From the NCBI GenBank assembly GCA_023246985.1, contig JAHFHJ010000001.1, forward strand, positions 18,514 through 45,022: a stretch of DNA of 26,509 nucleotides. Direction: 5' to 3'. The notes under the pieces are model-generated. The model was not told the origin of the DNA and ran no database searches. It saw only the letters and a program-made list of their open reading frames with translations. Origin of the DNA: Candidatus Omnitrophota bacterium (GTDB lineage: Bacteria; Omnitrophota; Omnitrophia; Omnitrophales; Aquincolibacteriaceae). Below, piece after piece: positions 4,699 through 15,145 of the stretch. The first letter of the stretch is position 1, and every line of letters begins with the position of its first letter. The position numbers and the translations under genes were made by a program.

Positions 4699-5342
4699 CG
4701 CGCGTCAAGATCTGCGGCAACACGAATTATGAGAACGCCCGGCTCGCCGCGGACCTCGGCGCGGACTATCTGGGTTTTATCTTTGTCCCCTCCAGCAAAC
4801 GGGTGGTCACGGTCGAAAAAACGGAGGAGATTCTGGCAAAGCTTCCGGACTTTAAAAACATCGTCGGGATCTTTTGCAATCAGCCCAAAAAGGAAGTCGA
4901 GACGATCGCCGAGCGTCTCGGACTTAAATTCCTTCAATTTCACGGCGAGGAGACCGCGCTTTACTGCGATTCGTTCATGCAAAAGGGCTATGAGATCATC
5001 AAAACTTTTCATGTGAAGGACTCCATGAGCCTGAAACGGATCGGCGAGTACAATGTCAGCGCTTTCCTTTTTGATACTTATTCGCGTTCCGACAAAGGCG
5101 GCAGGGGTATCCCGTTCGACTGGAGCGTTATTGAAGATAAGCCTTATGTCCATGACAAGCTTTTCCTGGCCGGAGGTCTCAATCCGCTCAATGTGACGAA
5201 CGCCATTGAAAAGGTCCGGCCGTTTGCCGTCGATGTCGCAAGCGGCGTCGAATCAAGTCCCGGCGTCAAGGACCCTCAACTCCTTCAGACATTCCTCGAA
5301 AAAGCCAAAAAGACGGTACCCGGTTATGAGCGAAAAACTTGA
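4695..5342 (+). CDS. trpF: Phosphoribosylanthranilate isomerase
   Basis: TRVKICG, LGFIF, LQFHGEE, FLFDT, GG.G..FDW, LAGGLNP, VDVASGVESSPGVKD; ATGA overlap with trpC. Confidence 0.95.
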   Translation: MTRVKICGNTNYENARLAADLGADYLGFIFVPSSKRVVTVEKTEEILAKLPDFKNIVGIFCNQPKKEVETIAERLGLKFLQFHGEETALYCDSFMQKGYEIIKTFHVKDSMSLKRIGEYNVSAFLFDTYSRSDKGGRGIPFDWSVIEDKPYVHDKLFLAGGLNPLNVTNAIEKVRPFAVDVASGVESSPGVKDPQLLQTFLEKAKKTVPGYERKT

Positions 5343-6492
5343 ATTCATCAAAAAACTGAAACCCCGCCTTCTTCGAATCGAAAAGGATTCTCTCTACCTC
5401 AAGCTTTTGGACGCGGTCCAGGAAAATCTTTTGCTCGAGGAGGTCTTTCAGAACCTCGAAGAGGGGGTCGTGATCACGGACGCGAAAGGATATCCGGTTT
5501 TTATCAACCCCAGAGGGGGAGACTGGCTCGGGAGTATCCGCGTCGCCGCAAAGCAGCCGGTTTGGAACCAGATCCCGGATCCCTCGGCCGCCGCGCTTCT
5601 GAGGGAAAATTTTCTCTCCGGCAAAGCACGGTCGGTCTTTGATCTCAAGACGCTGGCCCCGCGGGAGATGCGGATGCGCGTTTCAATCCTGCCCCGCGAT
5701 CTGGGAGACCGAAAACGCTTTGTGATCTTGCTTTCAGACATCACGTCACGCACGGAGCAGGAATTCGAAGCGGCGATGCTTTCGCGCATGGAAAGCCTGG
5801 TTCGTCTGGCCGGCGGAATCGCCCACGAGATCGGCAATCCTCTGAACGCGATCGCGATCCACTTGGAACTTTTTAAGAAACGCCTCGCGGGGTTACCGGA
5901 GGCCAAACGCCGGGAGCTTGCGGATTCTTTGAGCGACATTCAGGATGAAACCCGGCGCCTTGACCGTATTCTCCGGAATTTTCTCAAAGCTACGCGACGG
6001 CCGCCGCTTCGTTTCCGTCTGGACGATCTGAACGAAGTGATCGCCGATGCCCTCTCTTTCCTGAAACCCCAGCTGGATGTTGGAAAGGTCCGCGTGAAAT
6101 TCTCGAAAGACAAAGGGCTTCCGGTATTTCTGATGGACCGGGAACGGCTCTACTACGCTTTTATGAATCTGATTAAAAACGCTCTCGAAGCGATGCCTTT
6201 CGGCGGAACGCTCAAGATCGTAGTCGCTCATAAACAGTCCTGCGCCATTGTGACGGTTACGGACACGGGCTGCGGCATCGACGAAAAAAATATCACCCGG
6301 ATTTTCGATATTTACTACACCACCAAACAGGAAGGCGCGGGGCTTGGACTGATGATGGTCTATGACGCCATCGCCGAGCACGGCGGCAAGATCGAAGTCG
6401 CGAGCAAATTGAACAAGGGGACTACGTTCAATGTTTTGTTGCCGATCCGCGAGCCCCAACTGCAACTGCCCGGCTACCCGGGAAGAGGTTAG
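5326..6492 (+). CDS. Cytoplasmic PAS-type sensor histidine kinase
   Basis: PAS-like LEEGVVITDAKG..FIN, H-box IAHEIGNPLNAI, N-box NLIKNALEA, G1 DTGCGI, G2 GAGLGL; no hydrophobic TM stretch seen. Start set to ATG 5326, overlapping trpF by 17 nt. Confidence 0.92.
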   Translation: MSEKLEFIKKLKPRLLRIEKDSLYLKLLDAVQENLLLEEVFQNLEEGVVITDAKGYPVFINPRGGDWLGSIRVAAKQPVWNQIPDPSAAALLRENFLSGKARSVFDLKTLAPREMRMRVSILPRDLGDRKRFVILLSDITSRTEQEFEAAMLSRMESLVRLAGGIAHEIGNPLNAIAIHLELFKKRLAGLPEAKRRELADSLSDIQDETRRLDRILRNFLKATRRPPLRFRLDDLNEVIADALSFLKPQLDVGKVRVKFSKDKGLPVFLMDRERLYYAFMNLIKNALEAMPFGGTLKIVVAHKQSCAIVTVTDTGCGIDEKNITRIFDIYYTTKQEGAGLGLMMVYDAIAEHGGKIEVASKLNKGTTFNVLLPIREPQLQLPGYPGRG

Positions 6493-6497
6493 ACGTT

Positions 6498-7862
6498 ATG
6501 TTCGAAAGCATCCTGCTCGTTGAAGATGAGGCGAGTTCCCGTAAGGGACTCGCCCAATTTCTCCAAGGCCTGGATTACGATGTCCTGACGGCCATAAACG
6601 GCAGGGAGGCCCTCGGACTTTTCAAAAAAGAAAGTCCTGACCTCGTGATCTCGGATGTCCGGATGCCGGAAATGGACGGGATCGCGCTTTTGGAATCGAT
6701 CAAAGCCGACGCGCCCTCCGCTAAAGTCATCCTGTTGACGGCCTACGGCTCCGTGGAAGACGCGGTCAAAGCCATGAAGAAGGGCGCTTTCTACTATCTG
6801 ACCAAGCCCGTCAATCTTGAAGAGCTTGAATTTCTTGTGAAAAAAGCCTTCAGCAGCCGCCAGTTGGAGGAAGAGAACAAAGAGTTGAAACAGGAACTTT
6901 TCAGGGAGCGCTACGATCAGGGCCAACTGATCGCGCAGTCTCCCCAAATGACGGAGCTGCTTAAAGCCGTCGACAAGATCGCCCCCTCGAACGCCTCGGT
7001 CCTGATCGAAGGAGAAAGCGGCACCGGCAAAGAACTTATCGCTCGACGCATTCACGAACTCAGCCCGAGAAATCAGCATCCTTTTATCGCCGTCCATTGT
7101 GCCGCATTGACTGAGACGCTTCTCTCAAGCGAACTCTTCGGACATGAAAGAGGCGCCTTCACGGGCGCCGCGGACCGGAAAAAGGGGCGCTTTGAGCGCG
7201 CCCATCAAGGCAGCCTTTTTCTGGATGAGATCGGAGAGATCACCAAAGACACGCAGGTCAAACTCCTTCGGGTGCTCCAGGAGGGAGAGTTTGAACGCGT
7301 CGGCGGGACCAAGACGATCAAGGTCGATGTTCGTCTCATCGCCGCAACGAATAAAACATTACTCGATGAAGTGCGGCAGCAAAAGTTCCGCGAAGACCTC
7401 TACTACCGCATCAATGTCATCTACCTGAAAGTCCCGCCGCTCCGGGAACGCAAAGAAGACATCCCGCCGCTCGCGGAGGCTTTTATCCGCCAATATGCCG
7501 CGCTGAACGCAAAGAAAATTCGCGGGATTGAAAAAGACGCGCTGGACGCGCTGGTGCGATACGACTGGCCGGGGAATATCCGCGAGTTCAAAAATATCGT
7601 TGAGCGTATGATCGTTCTGAGTTCCGCGGACATGCTGACGCTGGATCAGATACCCGAAGATATCAGGCAGGAACGCTCCGGGACCCTGCGAACGAACGGC
7701 AGCGCTTCACTCCGGGGCATCACGAAGATCACGGATGCTGAAAAAGAACTGATCCGCAGCGCGCTTCTCGAGACCAAGGGCAACAAATCCACCGCGGCGG
7801 AAAAGCTCGGCATTTCCCGCCGAACGCTTTACCGGAAACTGGAAGAGTATAAACTCGCTTGA
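6498..7862 (+). CDS. Sigma54-dependent response regulator (NtrC/AtoC family)
   Basis: Receiver domain (LLVEDE, SDVRMPEMDG), Walker A GESGTGKE, ELFGHERGAFTGA, FLDEIGE, FREDLYYR, WPGNIRE and a C-terminal Fis-type HTH (AAEKLGISRRTLYRKL). Confidence 0.95.
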   Translation: MFESILLVEDEASSRKGLAQFLQGLDYDVLTAINGREALGLFKKESPDLVISDVRMPEMDGIALLESIKADAPSAKVILLTAYGSVEDAVKAMKKGAFYYLTKPVNLEELEFLVKKAFSSRQLEEENKELKQELFRERYDQGQLIAQSPQMTELLKAVDKIAPSNASVLIEGESGTGKELIARRIHELSPRNQHPFIAVHCAALTETLLSSELFGHERGAFTGAADRKKGRFERAHQGSLFLDEIGEITKDTQVKLLRVLQEGEFERVGGTKTIKVDVRLIAATNKTLLDEVRQQKFREDLYYRINVIYLKVPPLRERKEDIPPLAEAFIRQYAALNAKKIRGIEKDALDALVRYDWPGNIREFKNIVERMIVLSSADMLTLDQIPEDIRQERSGTLRTNGSASLRGITKITDAEKELIRSALLETKGNKSTAAEKLGISRRTLYRKLEEYKLA

Positions 7863-7948
7863 TTCTTAATGCCGTTTTGTTACAACCCATCGCGCCATAA
7901 TGTCTCATACATATATCCTTGTTTTACAAGCAAAAATTTTGAACGCTA

Positions 7949-7961
7949 TAACTCATTGAAA
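7949..7961 (+). promoter_or_regulatory. Candidate IHF binding site
   Basis: TAACTCATTGAAA matches YAANNNNTTGATW with one mismatch, in an AT-rich tract between the candidate enhancer and the -24/-12 element. Confidence 0.4.
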
Positions 7962-7997
7962 TTGCTATGGTTATGATTTTTAATTTTTATATGTTTT

Positions 7998-8012
7998 TGG
8001 CATGTTAATTGA
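7998..8012 (+). promoter_or_regulatory. Candidate sigma54 -24/-12 promoter upstream of dnaK
   Basis: TGGCATG-TTAA-TTGA versus consensus TGGCACG-N4-TTGC. GG (7999) to G (8011) spacing is correct; the -12 dinucleotide is GA rather than GC. Confidence 0.5.
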
Positions 8013-8065
8013 GATAGAAGAAGTAGCATTGAAGTCATTAGCGAAAAGAGAGAGGAGAGTATTCC

Positions 8066-9991
8066 ATGGGAAAGATTTTAGGCATTGATTTAGGAACAAC
8101 CAATTCATGCATGTCGATCATCGAAGGGTCGGACCCCAAGGTGATCGAAAATAAGGAAGGGAACCGCACCACTCCTTCCGTCGTCGCATTCACCAAAACC
8201 GGCGAGCAGCTGGTGGGACAAACCGCGAAGCGCCAGTCCGTCACGAACCCGGAGAACACGATCTTCAGCGCCAAGCGTTTCATCGGCCGGCGTTTTGAGG
8301 AGGCGGGACATGAGGTTCAGATGGTTCCTTTCAAGGTGAAAGCCGGCAAGCACGGCGAGGCGGTCTTCAACATCCCGCAGGAAAAACGGGATTATACGCC
8401 GCCGGAGATCTCCGCCAAGGTCCTCCAGAAACTCAAAGCTGACGCGGAAACTTATCTCGGGGAAAAGATCACCCAGGCCGTGATCACGGTGCCTGCGTAT
8501 TTCAACGATTCCCAGCGCCAGGCCACCAAGGATGCCGGGCAGATCGCGGGGCTCGAAGTCCTGCGTATCATCAACGAACCGACCGCGGCCGCGTTGGCCT
8601 ACGGCCTCGACAAGAAAAAAGACGAAACCATCGCGGTTTACGACCTCGGCGGAGGGACCTTCGATATCTCGATCCTTGAGATCGGAGAAGGCGTTTTCGA
8701 AGTGAAAGCCACGAACGGCGATACGCATTTGGGCGGCGATGACTTCGACCAGAAGATCATTGATTGGCTGATCGCGGAATTCAAAAAAACCGAAGGCATC
8801 GACCTCAGCAAAGACCGCATGGCTATTCAACGTCTCAAAGAAGCCGCGGAAAAGGCCAAGTGCGAACTGTCCACGGCGCAAAGCACGGAGATCAATCTTC
8901 CGTTCATCACGGCGGACGCCTCCGGCCCGAAACATCTGCTTCTGACCCTTTCCCGGGCTAAACTCGAGCAACTCGTGAACGAGCTGATCGAACGCACCGT
9001 CGGCCCTTGCTTGCAGGCCATGAAGGATACCGGCGTGAAACCCGAAGACATCGATGAGGTGATCCTTGTGGGCGGCATGACCCGCATGCCGGCCGTCGTG
9101 CAGAAGGCGAAGGATCTTTTCAAAAAAGTCCCGCACCAGGGCGTCAACCCGGATGAGGTCGTGGCGGTCGGCGCCGCGATCCAGGGCGGAGTCTTGAAAG
9201 GAGACGTGAAAGACATTCTCCTTTTGGATGTGACCCCGCTTTCGCTCGGCATCGAGACCTTGGGCGGTATCATGACCAAATTGATCGAGCGTAACACCAC
9301 GATCCCGACCCGGAAATCCGAAATCTTTTCGACCGCCGCGGACAATCAAACCGCGGTGACCGTGAAAGCGCTTCAGGGAGAGCGGGAAATGGCCGCGCAT
9401 AACCGGGTGCTCGGGCTCTTCAATCTGGAGGGAATTCCGCCCGCGTCGCGCGGCGTACCGCAGATCGAGGTGAGCTTTGACATCGACGCGAACGGCATTG
9501 TTCACGTCTCAGCTAAGGATCTCGGAACGGGCAAGGAGCAGAAGATCCGCATCGAATCTTCTTCCGGGCTTTCCAAAGACGAGGTGGAGAAGCTTGTCAA
9601 GGAAGGGCAGGTTCACGCGGAAGAGGACAGAAAACAACACGAAGTCGTCACGGCGCGCAACCAGCTCGACAATCTCATCTATGGGACCGAAAAGACCCTG
9701 AAAGAACACGGCGATAAGGTCACGGAAGACGAGAAAAAGAAAGTCGAGGAGGCCTTGAAAGAAGCCAAGGCCTTGCTCACGAGCGAATCCAAGGAAGAGC
9801 TGGAAAAAGCCAGCCAGAAACTCGCGACCGCGTCGCATACGATCGCGCAGAAGATGTATGAAGAGGCCGCCAAAAAGGCCGGAAATAAGGCGGGGGCGGT
9901 CCCGGATTCCGGCGGCAAGAAGGACGACGGTGTCGTCGATGCCGACTACGAAGTCGTCGACGAGGAAGAAAAGAAAAAAAAGAAGGAATAA
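8066..9991 (+). CDS. dnaK: Molecular chaperone DnaK (Hsp70)
   Basis: [73 protein letters not shown] tail; GGAG RBS upstream. Confidence 0.99.
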
Positions 9992-9999
9992 CAAATTCA

Positions 10000-10052
10000 G
10001 GGAACGGGAAACGTTGGGCGTTTAACGCCGGCGTTTTCCGTTTTACGTTTTA
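10000..10052 (+). terminator. Hairpin downstream of dnaK (possible intrinsic terminator) built of 7-nt units
   Basis: AACGGGAAACG (10003-13) pairs with CGTTTTCCGTT (10032-42), inner GGCG/CGCC with a TTTAA loop; followed by broken T runs. Confidence 0.45.
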
Positions 10053-10080
10053 CGGCGCCGCCAAAGCCAAAGAAGAACTG

Positions 10081-10953
10081 ATGCCTTACCGTACGAAATG
10101 GTTTTTGTTGTGCTTGATCTTGATGTTGGGTTTGCCTGGGCCTTGGGCCCTGGCTGTTCCACGCCTCAAGATCGATCCGCCCGTCAAAAAGATCCCGCTC
10201 GACCAACTCGCGATCCTGAAAATCCGACTCGAGTGGCCGCAAGACGAAGGACCGTATGAAATAAATTCCCGGGAGCCCATGCTCGAGAACCTGACCCTCG
10301 AAAAACAAAATCAGTCCCAGGAAACCGGCGCCGCCGTCCGTCATACCCTCACTTATGAGTTCCGTCCTGTCAAAAAAGGAGCGGCTGTCATTGATCCTTT
10401 TGAAGTCAGCTACCGGAAATCCGAGACAGAACCGTGGATCCCCCTCATGATCCCGGAACAAAATATGACGGTTGTTTCAAGCTGGCCGTTAAGATCGATC
10501 CTGATCGGGTTATTGATTGCGGCGGGATTTTTAGCGTTGATTTTGACGGGCTTCAAAGTGCGGACCACCCTGGCGGCTCGTAACGCCGCGAGAAATAGGC
10601 CCCCCCCGGATCCCAAACAAAGAATTTATGCGAAGGCGGAAGAATCGATTGCGACATTCGTCTCGCCGGATCCCAAAGAAAAACTAATTCACTGGTCGAA
10701 TCTGCTCCGGACCGTGGTCGTGACCTACTATGACATCTCCGATGGGAAAACGACTCTTGCCGAGGTCCTTTCACGCCTCCGATCGAAGGGCCTTTTGGCG
10801 GGGGAGTGGAACGAGGTCTCGCGTCTTTTTGAACAGCTTTCCGAGATGCAATTTTCCAGGCAGGACATTCCGGCCCATGCGCTTGAGCAACTCCAAAAGA
10901 CCCTCTTGCAATATGTAAGAGGCAAGATTATCATTGGCAACTTGAACGCTTGA
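10081..10953 (+). CDS. Secreted/membrane-anchored protein with BatD-like Ig-type N-terminal domain
   Basis: N-terminal signal peptide, beta-rich domain (TLTYEFRPVKKGAAVIDPFEVSY), one TM helix (ILIGLLIAAGFLALIL), helical cytoplasmic C-terminus; directly upstream of moxR. Family call is by pattern only. Confidence 0.55.
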   Translation: MPYRTKWFLLCLILMLGLPGPWALAVPRLKIDPPVKKIPLDQLAILKIRLEWPQDEGPYEINSREPMLENLTLEKQNQSQETGAAVRHTLTYEFRPVKKGAAVIDPFEVSYRKSETEPWIPLMIPEQNMTVVSSWPLRSILIGLLIAAGFLALILTGFKVRTTLAARNAARNRPPPDPKQRIYAKAEESIATFVSPDPKEKLIHWSNLLRTVVVTYYDISDGKTTLAEVLSRLRSKGLLAGEWNEVSRLFEQLSEMQFSRQDIPAHALEQLQKTLLQYVRGKIIIGNLNA

Positions 10954-11081
10954 TCATTTCCACCCCGTGAGAGACTTAAATATTTTGGGTGGATTGTGTT
11001 GTATTAAGTATTTATTCCTATAACTATGAAACGCGCCGCTGGGGTTCACACGATCTCTAACGGGGCAAGAAGGAGAACTCT

Positions 11082-12071
11082 ATGGACAGTTCGATCCAGG
11101 AAGTCAACGCCAAGATCCGTGAAGCCAACGCCTCGATCAAAGATCTCACCCGCGAGATCGGGAAGGTCATTGTCGGTCAACAATATCTCGTGGACCGGCT
11201 CCTCATGGCTCTTTTGGCCGACGGACACATCTTGATCGAAGGGGTTCCAGGCCTTGCCAAGACCCTTTCCGTACGGACCCTCTCCCAGGCCATTGATGCC
11301 CAATTCCAGCGCATCCAGTTTACTCCGGACCTCCTCCCGGCCGATGTGGTCGGAACCTTGGTCTATAACCCCAAAGACGGCCATTTTTCAACTAAAAAGG
11401 GCCCTATTTTTACCAATATCATCCTGGCGGATGAGATCAACCGGGCTCCTTCCAAGGTCCAAAGCGCGCTCCTGGAGGCCATGCAGGAACGCCAGGTCAC
11501 GATCGGCAATGAGACCTTCCCGCTGCCGGTCCCATTTCTCGTCCTTGCGACCCAAAATCCGATCGAACAAGAGGGAACTTATCCGCTGCCTGAAGCCCAG
11601 GTCGACCGTTTCATGCTGAAATTAGTCGTTAACTATCCCAGCAAAAAGGAAGAGAAAGAGATCCTGGAGCGCATGGCAACCGGCAAAATGATCCAAGTGA
11701 CGCCGGTTATGAACATTCACCAGATCATGGCCCTTCGAAAACTGCTGCACGAGATTTATATTGATGAAAAGGTGAAGGATTATATTCTCGATCTCGTATT
11801 CGCGACGCGCAATCCTCAGGATTACAAACTTCCGGACCTGAAGCCCCTAATTTCGTATGGCGCTTCGCCGCGCGCGAGCATCATGTTGACCCTGGCGGCC
11901 AAAGCACACGCCTTTCTCCAGGGACGCGGCTATGTCACTCCGGATGACGTCAAACAGATCGGATCGGACGTCCTGCGGCATCGCGTTCTTGTGACCTACG
12001 AAGCGGAAGCCGAGGACATCACCACCGACGATATCGTCAAAAAAATCTTCGATCAGGTCGAAGTCCCATAA
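11082..12071 (+). CDS. moxR: MoxR-family AAA+ ATPase
   Basis: HILIEGVPGLAKT (Walker A), RIQFTPDLLPAD, LADEINRAPSKVQSALLEAMQE, TQNPIEQEGTYPLPEAQVDRF, YGASPRAS; AAGGAG RBS. Confidence 0.96.
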   Translation: MDSSIQEVNAKIREANASIKDLTREIGKVIVGQQYLVDRLLMALLADGHILIEGVPGLAKTLSVRTLSQAIDAQFQRIQFTPDLLPADVVGTLVYNPKDGHFSTKKGPIFTNIILADEINRAPSKVQSALLEAMQERQVTIGNETFPLPVPFLVLATQNPIEQEGTYPLPEAQVDRFMLKLVVNYPSKKEEKEILERMATGKMIQVTPVMNIHQIMALRKLLHEIYIDEKVKDYILDLVFATRNPQDYKLPDLKPLISYGASPRASIMLTLAAKAHAFLQGRGYVTPDDVKQIGSDVLRHRVLVTYEAEAEDITTDDIVKKIFDQVEVP

Positions 12072-14175: not shown

Positions 14176-15145
14176 GCATCCGGCATTCTTCCTGCTTCTG
14201 CTTCTGTTGCCCTTTGTTTTTAGGGGGTCCTGGCGCCGCGAAAAACTGGAATTCGCATTTTCTTCTTTGCAACTCCTCAAAGACCGGCCCGCGACCTCCC
14301 GAATGTTCTTTTTCAGGTTGTTGCCGGTCCTGCGCTTCGTCATGTTGGTGCTCCTCATTGCCGCGCTGGCCAGACCCTCGAACGTCTCGAGCGACAAGGA
14401 ATACCAGACCCACGGCGTCGATATCGTGATCGCTCTCGATATCTCGGGTTCCATGCTCGCCGAGGATTTTCAGCCGGAGAACCGCGTCTTCGTCGCCAAA
14501 CAGGAGGCCATCAAATTCATCAAAGGACGCGAAAATGACCGCGTCGGCCTTGTGGTGTTCTCCCAAAAAGCGTTCACGCAGTGCCCGCTCACGCTTGATT
14601 ACCGGATCCTTGTGGAACTTCTTTCCGAGATTCGGGTCGGTATGATCGCCGACGGTACCGCCATTGGCATGGGCATCGCGACCGCGGTGAACCGCCTCCG
14701 GGACAGCGACGCGAAAAGCAAGGTCATCATCCTGATCACGGACGGGGAGAACAACGCCGGGAATATTGACCCGGTCACGGCGGCAGAACTTGCCAAAAGT
14801 TTTGGCATCAAGATCTACACGATCGGCGTCGGACGGGGGGGGATGGTCCCGTTCCCGATCGATGACCCGCTTTTCGGCAAGCGCTATGTCCAGGCAAATG
14901 TGGAGGTCGATGAAACGACCCTGAAGCGCATCGCGGATATCACCGGCGGTCTTTTTTTCCGGGCCCGCGATCCCGCGGCGCTTTCTGAAATTTACGAACG
15001 GATCAACAAGCTCGAAAAGAGTGAGGTCAAGGTCAAAGAATACCGCAGCTTCAACGAACTCTTCCCGATCTTTTTGATCCCGGCGCTCCTCCTCCTGCTC
15101 CTGGATATTCTTTTGCGCCGGACCCTCCTGATGAAGGTGCCCTGA
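14165..15145 (+). CDS. batA: vWA-domain membrane protein BatA
   Basis: MVFRHPAFFLLLLLLP start, ALARP, DIVIALDISGSM (MIDAS), DRVGLVVF, GTAIGMG, ILITDGENNAG, VKEY, C-terminal TM. Start set to ATG 14165. Confidence 0.9.
   Translation: MVFRHPAFFLLLLLLPFVFRGSWRREKLEFAFSSLQLLKDRPATSRMFFFRLLPVLRFVMLVLLIAALARPSNVSSDKEYQTHGVDIVIALDISGSMLAEDFQPENRVFVAKQEAIKFIKGRENDRVGLVVFSQKAFTQCPLTLDYRILVELLSEIRVGMIADGTAIGMGIATAVNRLRDSDAKSKVIILITDGENNAGNIDPVTAAELAKSFGIKIYTIGVGRGGMVPFPIDDPLFGKRYVQANVEVDETTLKRIADITGGLFFRARDPAALSEIYERINKLEKSEVKVKEYRSFNELFPIFLIPALLLLLLDILLRRTLLMKVP

Follow-up and report, generated by a model that had tools for sequence, protein, structure and literature searches.

Hsp70, encoded by dnaK, is usually regulated in bacteria by sigma32, HrcA or HspR. 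A groundwater metagenome-assembled genome of Candidatus Omnitrophota (1.5 Mb, 185 contigs, 82.5% complete, 53% GC) presents a dnaK gene directly behind the gene of a sigma-54 activator, which raises the question of what controls dnaK at this locus. An initial annotation, based on the letters of a 26,509-nt stretch of this genome (hereafter the window), had proposed that the spacer before dnaK contains an enhancer, an IHF-like site and a sigma-54 core promoter. Comparison with related genomes, described below, indicates that the spacer is probably an enhancer-dependent sigma-54 promoter of dnaK driven by the neighbouring kinase-activator pair.

The dnaK locus

The genes on the forward strand are, in order, trpD, trpC, trpF, a histidine kinase gene, the sigma-54 activator gene and, after a 203-bp spacer (7863-8065), dnaK (Table 1). 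The stop codon of the activator gene occupies positions 7860-7862. The start of the kinase gene overlaps the trpF stop by 17 nt (5326-5342) and only 5 nt separate the kinase and activator genes (6492-6498), so that the two-component genes look co-transcribed with trpD-trpC-trpF. Directly 3' of dnaK, positions 9995-10065 hold a GC-rich hairpin followed by GTTTTAC/GTTTTCC repeat units, the hairpin probably being a terminator. Further downstream (10081-12071) lie a gene for a 290-aa protein and a MoxR AAA+ gene. The 290-aa protein, with N-terminal and internal hydrophobic segments and without a Pfam match, is kept at the same place within the family.

Table 1. Features of the dnaK locus and of related promoters. 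Positions are those of the window unless a genome and contig are given.
Feature	Position	Strand	Remarks
Soluble histidine kinase	5326-6492	+	Pfam HisKA and HATPase_c; likely start ATG 5326; weak PAS-like N-terminus
Response-regulator sigma-54 activator	6498-7862	+	Pfam Response_reg, Sigma54_activat, AAA_lid_14 and HTH_8
Distal, weaker candidate activator site AATGCCGTTTTGTTACA	7868-7884		9/14; about 23 bp upstream of the main palindrome
Main enhancer palindrome CGCGCCATAATGTCTCA (CGCGCCA-TAA-TGTCTCA)	7891-7907		11/14 to the order consensus; centre about -125 from the predicted start
Architectural box TAAC-N17-GTTA	7949-7973		about -75 to -51; between enhancer and core
Sigma-54 core TGGCATG-TTAA-TTGA	7998-8012	+	GG 7999-8000 (-25/-24), GA 8011-8012 (-13/-12); kept in 30/30 relatives
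Predicted transcription start	8023-8025	+	from the -24/-12 spacing geometry only
Leader block, consensus TGTCGTAATTAACGAAC	8030-8046	+	conserved in the genus (anchored alignment); begins close to the predicted start
dnaK (Hsp70), gene controlled	8066-9991	+	Pfam HSP70, 880 bits; ATG at 8066
clpB-like gene promoter TGGCAYG-N4-TTGA	G024:C31 ~14930-14944 (L204)		in a relative
hsp20 promoter TGGCAYG-N4-TTGA	G024:C41 ~41308-41322 (L206)		in a relative
Prepilin gene promoter TGGCATG-N4-TTGA	G030:C2 ~201928-201942 (L192)	-	with ATAACC...GAGTTAT box at the same spacing

The core promoter

The string TGGCATG-N4-TTGA, read as a sigma-54 promoter in the initial annotation, is present in the spacer and agrees with the canonical TGGCAC-N5-TTGCW in the GG, the spacing and the TTG, the C at -12 being replaced by A. 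Within the window alone the motif is insignificant, with one TGGCA-N6-TTG where 0.61 would be expected and at least one match in 43 of 100 shuffles; its significance comes from conservation among relatives. The comparison set comprised dnaK loci of 30 relatives from 10 families of the order (the own family, genus included, and nine others), and their upstream regions were aligned by anchoring on the core motif. TGG(C/T)A-N6-(T/A)TG was found upstream of dnaK in all 30, in the exact form TGGCA-N6-TTG in 28, at 56-170 nt (mostly 65-90 nt) from the ATG and with the consensus TGGCAYG-N-TAATTGA. The GG at -24, the conservation of which had been proposed as a check, and the G of the -12 element are kept throughout. 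The 30 relatives are non-independent samples, yet the conserved blocks stand in spacers that have otherwise diverged. A weight matrix built from the relatives' sites ranked the dnaK site top in the own genome at 27.6 bits, the next site scoring 18.3 bits, and dnaK was the sole carrier of this promoter type in that scan.

The GA at -12 had been regarded as a weakness of the assignment, an objection that loses its force in this lineage, where TTGA is the conserved dnaK form (most loci have A at -12, and just two of the 30 have C) and also stands before amt, pilin, clpB and hsp20 genes in relatives. For the same reason, namely that it precedes amt and pilin genes, TTGA was rejected as a chaperone-specific variant. 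The -12 element is the site of a repressive fork-junction contact by sigma-54 (PMC5095919), and the conserved A might raise basal promoter activity, an effect that would not be specific to chaperone genes. A reading of TTGA as the -35 element of an overlapping sigma-70 promoter was discarded as unsupported: judged by eye, the nearest TA-rich hexamer lies 18-20 nt away and has no A at its second position, and a consensus scan of the spacer gave no match.

The leader was also considered as an RNA thermometer or structured element. This was not retained, as RNAalifold predicted no structure for the leaders of the genus and the leader of the window folds at only -2.3 kcal/mol. Three groundwater metatranscriptome runs (same sample/study) contained almost none of this sequence, the matches over 5200-10100 being only 90-95% identical fragments of conserved dnaK parts from other organisms; none covered the promoter and none gave a 5' end.

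Enhancer palindromes and the middle box

All the strings listed in the initial annotation are found in the spacer, namely the candidate enhancer CGCGCCATAATGTCTCA (7891-7907), the dyads at 7877-7885 and 7918-7930, the IHF-like TAACTCATTGAAA (7949-7961) and the core at 7998-8012. The enhancer candidate proved to be the window's copy of an NtrC-type palindrome, with the order consensus TGYGYCA-N3-TGRCRCA, that is conserved at a fixed distance from the core; in most loci its first base lies 105-107 nt before the T of TGGCA. At least 12 of its 14 positions are matched in 22/30 loci, compared with 6 of 1500 shuffles (0.4%), and some relatives carry perfect palindromes such as TGCGCCA-TTA-TGGCGCA and TGCGTCA-AAA-TGACGCA; the copy in the window, at 11/14, is degenerate. 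At the distal position the genus has a conserved box TTTGCCGTTTGGWTACA, and 11-12/14 sites occur at the same offset in other genera. Two phased sites at a distance of this kind (about -125) are the usual layout for NtrC-type activators. The dyad TTGT-T-ACAA (7877-7885), claimed to flank the enhancer, falls within this distal site, whereas the dyad at 7918-7930 is not conserved, only T- and A-tracts recurring there. A 6-nt seed search of the window found no inverted repeats; it missed the palindromes because they are too short or degenerate, and they became visible only through genome comparison. As a probe for a regulon in the own genome the palindrome was uninformative at 53% GC, giving 37 matches at up to two mismatches, most of them inside genes and none close to a sigma-54 core.

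Between enhancer and core, the middle box matches the IHF consensus WATCAANNNNTTR at 12 of 13 positions on the minus strand (TTTCAATGAGTTA). Its position is conserved: the box starts 48-50 nt upstream of TGGCA in 16/30 loci, and two others have it nearer by one helical turn, at 39-40 nt. Allowing a single mismatch, the IHF consensus was found on the minus strand in 17/30 loci, compared with 21% of shuffles, and distant families retain only the outer dyad TAAC-N17-GTTA. The same box, at the same spacing, recurs in a relative from a different family (G030) at an unrelated prepilin sigma-54 promoter behind a different activator gene. Its presence at both dnaK and pilin promoters suggests that the box serves a general architectural role and is not an operator specific to dnaK. 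The initial annotation had suggested looking for rpoN and ihf genes. An intact rpoN is present as a 477-aa ORF on contig C143 with AID, CBD and DBD domains, whereas a search for the HU/IHF family (PF00216) found no gene in the own genome, which is 82.5% complete, though it did so in 37 of 41 genomes, the own genome being counted among the 41.

The kinase-activator pair

The neighbouring protein had been called a sigma-54 activator, and its sequence is indeed complete, with D53 (in DVRMPEMDG), Walker A, GAFTGA and HTH. Its NCBIfam scores (AtoC 520.9 against a cut-off of 714; NtrC 457 against 558.6) lie below the cut-offs and thus mark it as a family member and not as a named orthologue. In the kinase no hydrophobic segment was found, the PAS_8 match reaches only E=0.013, and the best NCBIfam match, AtoS, is below cut-off.

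The own genome contains only two strong PF00158 matches, the REC-AAA-HTH protein beside dnaK and a GAF-AAA protein on contig C39. Three canonical TGGCAY-N5-TTGC promoters, at 6955, 4512 and 2298 on the minus strand of contig C99 (L131), stand before the gene of a type III glutamine synthetase and those of two ammonium transporters (amt). With only two activators, and with canonical promoters at nitrogen genes, dnaK is the obvious target of the REC-type activator. From adjacency, co-occurrence and elimination, we infer that this protein acts at the 7891-7907 palindrome. A TGT-N10-ACA string is found upstream of the last of the three C99 promoters (amt).

Usual chaperone controls

The claim that no CIRCE element precedes dnaK was borne out in the 30 upstream regions, where none was found even with 5 mismatches; nor were HAIR, sigma-32 or CtsR motifs conserved in these regions. 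None of 41 genomes gave an rpoH match above cut-off, the best candidate being a third sigma factor, RpoD/RpoS-like. Ahead of groEL, at about 7130-7310 on contig C119, stand a CIRCE-like repeat (TTGGCACTC-N9-GAGTGCC) and a sigma-70-like promoter (TTGATT ... TACAAT). With dnaK lacking CIRCE and groEL carrying a CIRCE-like repeat, the chaperone genes appear split between two control systems. On the same contig, no groES lies between the CIRCE-like operator and groEL.

HrcA was found in 37 of the 41 genomes searched, and no HrcA Pfam match was obtained in the own genome. The minus strand of contig C151 (L176:1895-2064) has, upstream of grpE, no more than a 60-codon ORF with an HrcA-like start, which then breaks off; this broken HrcA could be due to gene decay or to an assembly artefact. 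HrcA of genus relatives is short (~266 aa) and matches only the C-terminal half of the model; in other families it is full-length.

Related promoters and regulon size

In a larger genome of the same family (G024), TGGCAYG-N4-TTGA precedes a clpB-like gene and hsp20, and an enhancer-like palindrome, TGTGCCT-TTT-TGACTCA, lies 69 nt upstream at the clpB-like gene. These sequences suggest a small proteostasis regulon, of which the reduced genomes of the genus seem to have kept only dnaK. A phylum-wide proteostasis regulon of the Bacteroidota/Planctomycetota type was not found, only dnaK having this promoter type in the own genome and the activator having a REC domain. The prepilin gene of G030 is situated directly downstream of another activator gene, in a PilR-like layout.

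Distribution and origin

Of 58 genomes of the order, 52 yielded a relative of the activator (54-88% identity), as against 2 of 62 genomes from other orders, both with weak matches (46-47%). Comparison of coordinates placed the activator gene immediately upstream of dnaK in about 37 of the roughly 51 order genomes that have both genes. Activator relatives and the dnaK promoter thus share their host genomes.

The comparison also covered 40 dnaK loci belonging to other orders in the phylum. There, grpE is directly upstream of dnaK in 34/40 and no activator gene precedes dnaK, whereas inside the order grpE is absent from the 1.5 kb around dnaK in all 30 loci. TGGCA-N6-TTG was absent within 190 nt of the dnaK start in all 40, and two isolated matches occur about 200 nt upstream, in or next to the upstream gene. 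The simplest history suggested by this distribution would be a single event at the base of the order, in which dnaK left the grpE-dnaK operon and came under the circuit while groEL stayed under the CIRCE-like operator. Adjacency of activator and dnaK outside Omnitrophota was looked for among the best relatives of the activator (~45% identity; Nitrospirota, Acidobacteriota, Gemmatimonadota, Bdellovibrionota and Planctomycetota), none of which has dnaK alongside.

Model and alternatives

The spacer sequences of the order thus favour an enhancer-dependent sigma-54 promoter driven by the neighbouring pair, a reading to which we assign a probability of about 0.78. The soluble, PAS-like kinase would phosphorylate the REC domain of the activator, dimers of which would bind the palindrome at 7891-7907, and probably also the weaker site at 7868-7884, leading to assembly of the AAA+ ring. 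An IHF/HU-type protein would bend the DNA at 7949-7973 so that the ring may contact sigma-54 polymerase at 7998-8012, and ATP would then open the promoter, the dnaK mRNA starting near 8024. The signal is presumed to be proteotoxic or heat stress, the heat-shock label deriving solely from the identity of the target genes. As a tentative extension, held at well below even odds, the pair could be a dedicated heat or unfolded-protein sensor with Hsp70 as its main output (the only output in reduced genomes); DnaK might feed back on the kinase or the activator through chaperone titration, a mechanism by which it acts on sigma-32 and HspR in other bacteria, and the A at -12 might loosen the sigma-54 lock to allow basal expression.

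The sigma-54 promoter might be real and yet be driven by the GAF-type activator, or answer to something other than protein folding, for instance nutrient or energy status, the neighbouring two-component system having other targets. Translational coupling of kinase and activator to the trp genes would agree with this, as would the lack of any domain or family match that identifies a ligand for the kinase, and the activator is unlinked from dnaK in some genomes (G014, G005 and G011). Enhancer and core nevertheless still precede dnaK in these three, activator relatives and dnaK promoter share the same phyletic range, and the two genes are immediate neighbours in most genomes of the order. The own genome, moreover, offers the REC activator no other strong promoter of the dnaK type, and the TGT-N10-ACA string upstream of amt, which we take to resemble a NifA-type site, would pair the GAF protein with the nitrogen genes. 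Assignment to another activator or signal is therefore considered unlikely.

Still less probable is a scheme in which most dnaK transcripts arise by read-through out of the trp-kinase-activator unit, or at a sigma-70 promoter that went unrecognised, with the conserved blocks acting as a repressor operator or as termination/processing signals. A consensus scan of the spacer found neither a terminator after the activator gene, so that read-through could also supply dnaK mRNA, nor a sigma-70-like promoter. The constant need for dnaK sits poorly with a strictly activator-dependent promoter, and the conserved leader block at 8030-8046 has no place among the promoter parts assigned here. Set against this, the blocks match, in order and in spacing, the three elements that make up a sigma-54 promoter, and they persist where the upstream gene differs. 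Read-through could also coexist with the sigma-54 promoter rather than replace it, and may provide basal dnaK expression. That the core is a chance motif without function, as the 43% of window shuffles yielding a match might suggest, is effectively refuted by its recurrence at the same place in 30/30 loci with otherwise diverged spacers.

Comparison with known systems

Textbook examples of the enhancer-IHF-sigma-54 layout are Escherichia coli NtrB/NtrC at glnAp2 and PspF/IHF at pspA. The Omnitrophota promoter shares with them tandem palindromes about 100-150 bp upstream, a site for a bending protein in between and a GG-N10-G core, and differs in the regulated gene, in the sequence of the sites and in the conserved A at -12. 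A literature search combining Omnitrophota and sigma-54 returned no relevant account.

In Myxococcus xanthus, the HsfB/HsfA phosphorelay is described as activating the heat-shock gene lonD (Ueki and Inouye 2002, cited in PMC9109919), a histidine kinase and an NtrC-like response regulator thus directly activating a heat-shock gene, as proposed here. According to the same description, the system differs from the one described here in that it acts on a gene for a Lon protease instead of Hsp70, in that the kinase HsfB is of the hybrid type and in that HsfA has several further targets. The sigma-54 regulon of Chlamydia trachomatis CtcB/CtcC, an AtoS/AtoC-like pair, includes hrcA-grpE (PMC7482065; PMC8762339), so that there, too, an AtoS/AtoC-like two-component system and sigma-54 touch an Hsp70 chaperone operon. 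In Chlamydia the sigma-54 promoter is in tandem with a sigma-66 promoter and CIRCE at hrcA, whereas the Omnitrophota promoter serves dnaK alone and lacks CIRCE.

In Flavobacterium psychrophilum, start-site-mapped sigma-54 promoters (motif SM4) have been reported at protein-quality-control genes, among them dnaK, groES-groEL, grpE-dnaJ, htpG, clpB and lon (Guerin et al. 2021, PMC9723704), and the same trend for chaperone genes is predicted for Bacteroidota and Planctomycetota (PMC12316311). As in F. psychrophilum, dnaK stands behind a -24/-12 promoter and outside sigma-32/HrcA control. The initial annotation had called sigma54-driven Hsp70 an unusual heat-shock wiring; its sigma-54 part is supported, whereas the wiring is less unusual than was stated, given the published Flavobacterium promoters at dnaK (PMC9723704), and the heat signal is a presumption. 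Unlike F. psychrophilum, the own genome has the promoter at dnaK only and retains a CIRCE-like element at groEL, TTGA forms the -12 element, and the arrangement probably arose within one Omnitrophota order, dnaK having moved out of the grpE operon. What is new here is the phylum, a phosphorylatable activator with its own kinase, the single-gene regulon of the genus and the traceable relocation of dnaK. A phylum known only from metagenomes would thereby join the bacteria that run chaperones by sigma-54 and not by sigma-32/HrcA, and these two-component genes can be annotated with a likely function and target. The apparent single target in the small genomes of the genus makes this a clean system for studying what the kinase senses at Hsp70 and how the -12 base tunes the promoter. 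The rewiring itself is a datable event, in which dnaK was cut from the ancestral grpE-dnaK operon in one order while groEL kept its CIRCE-like element.
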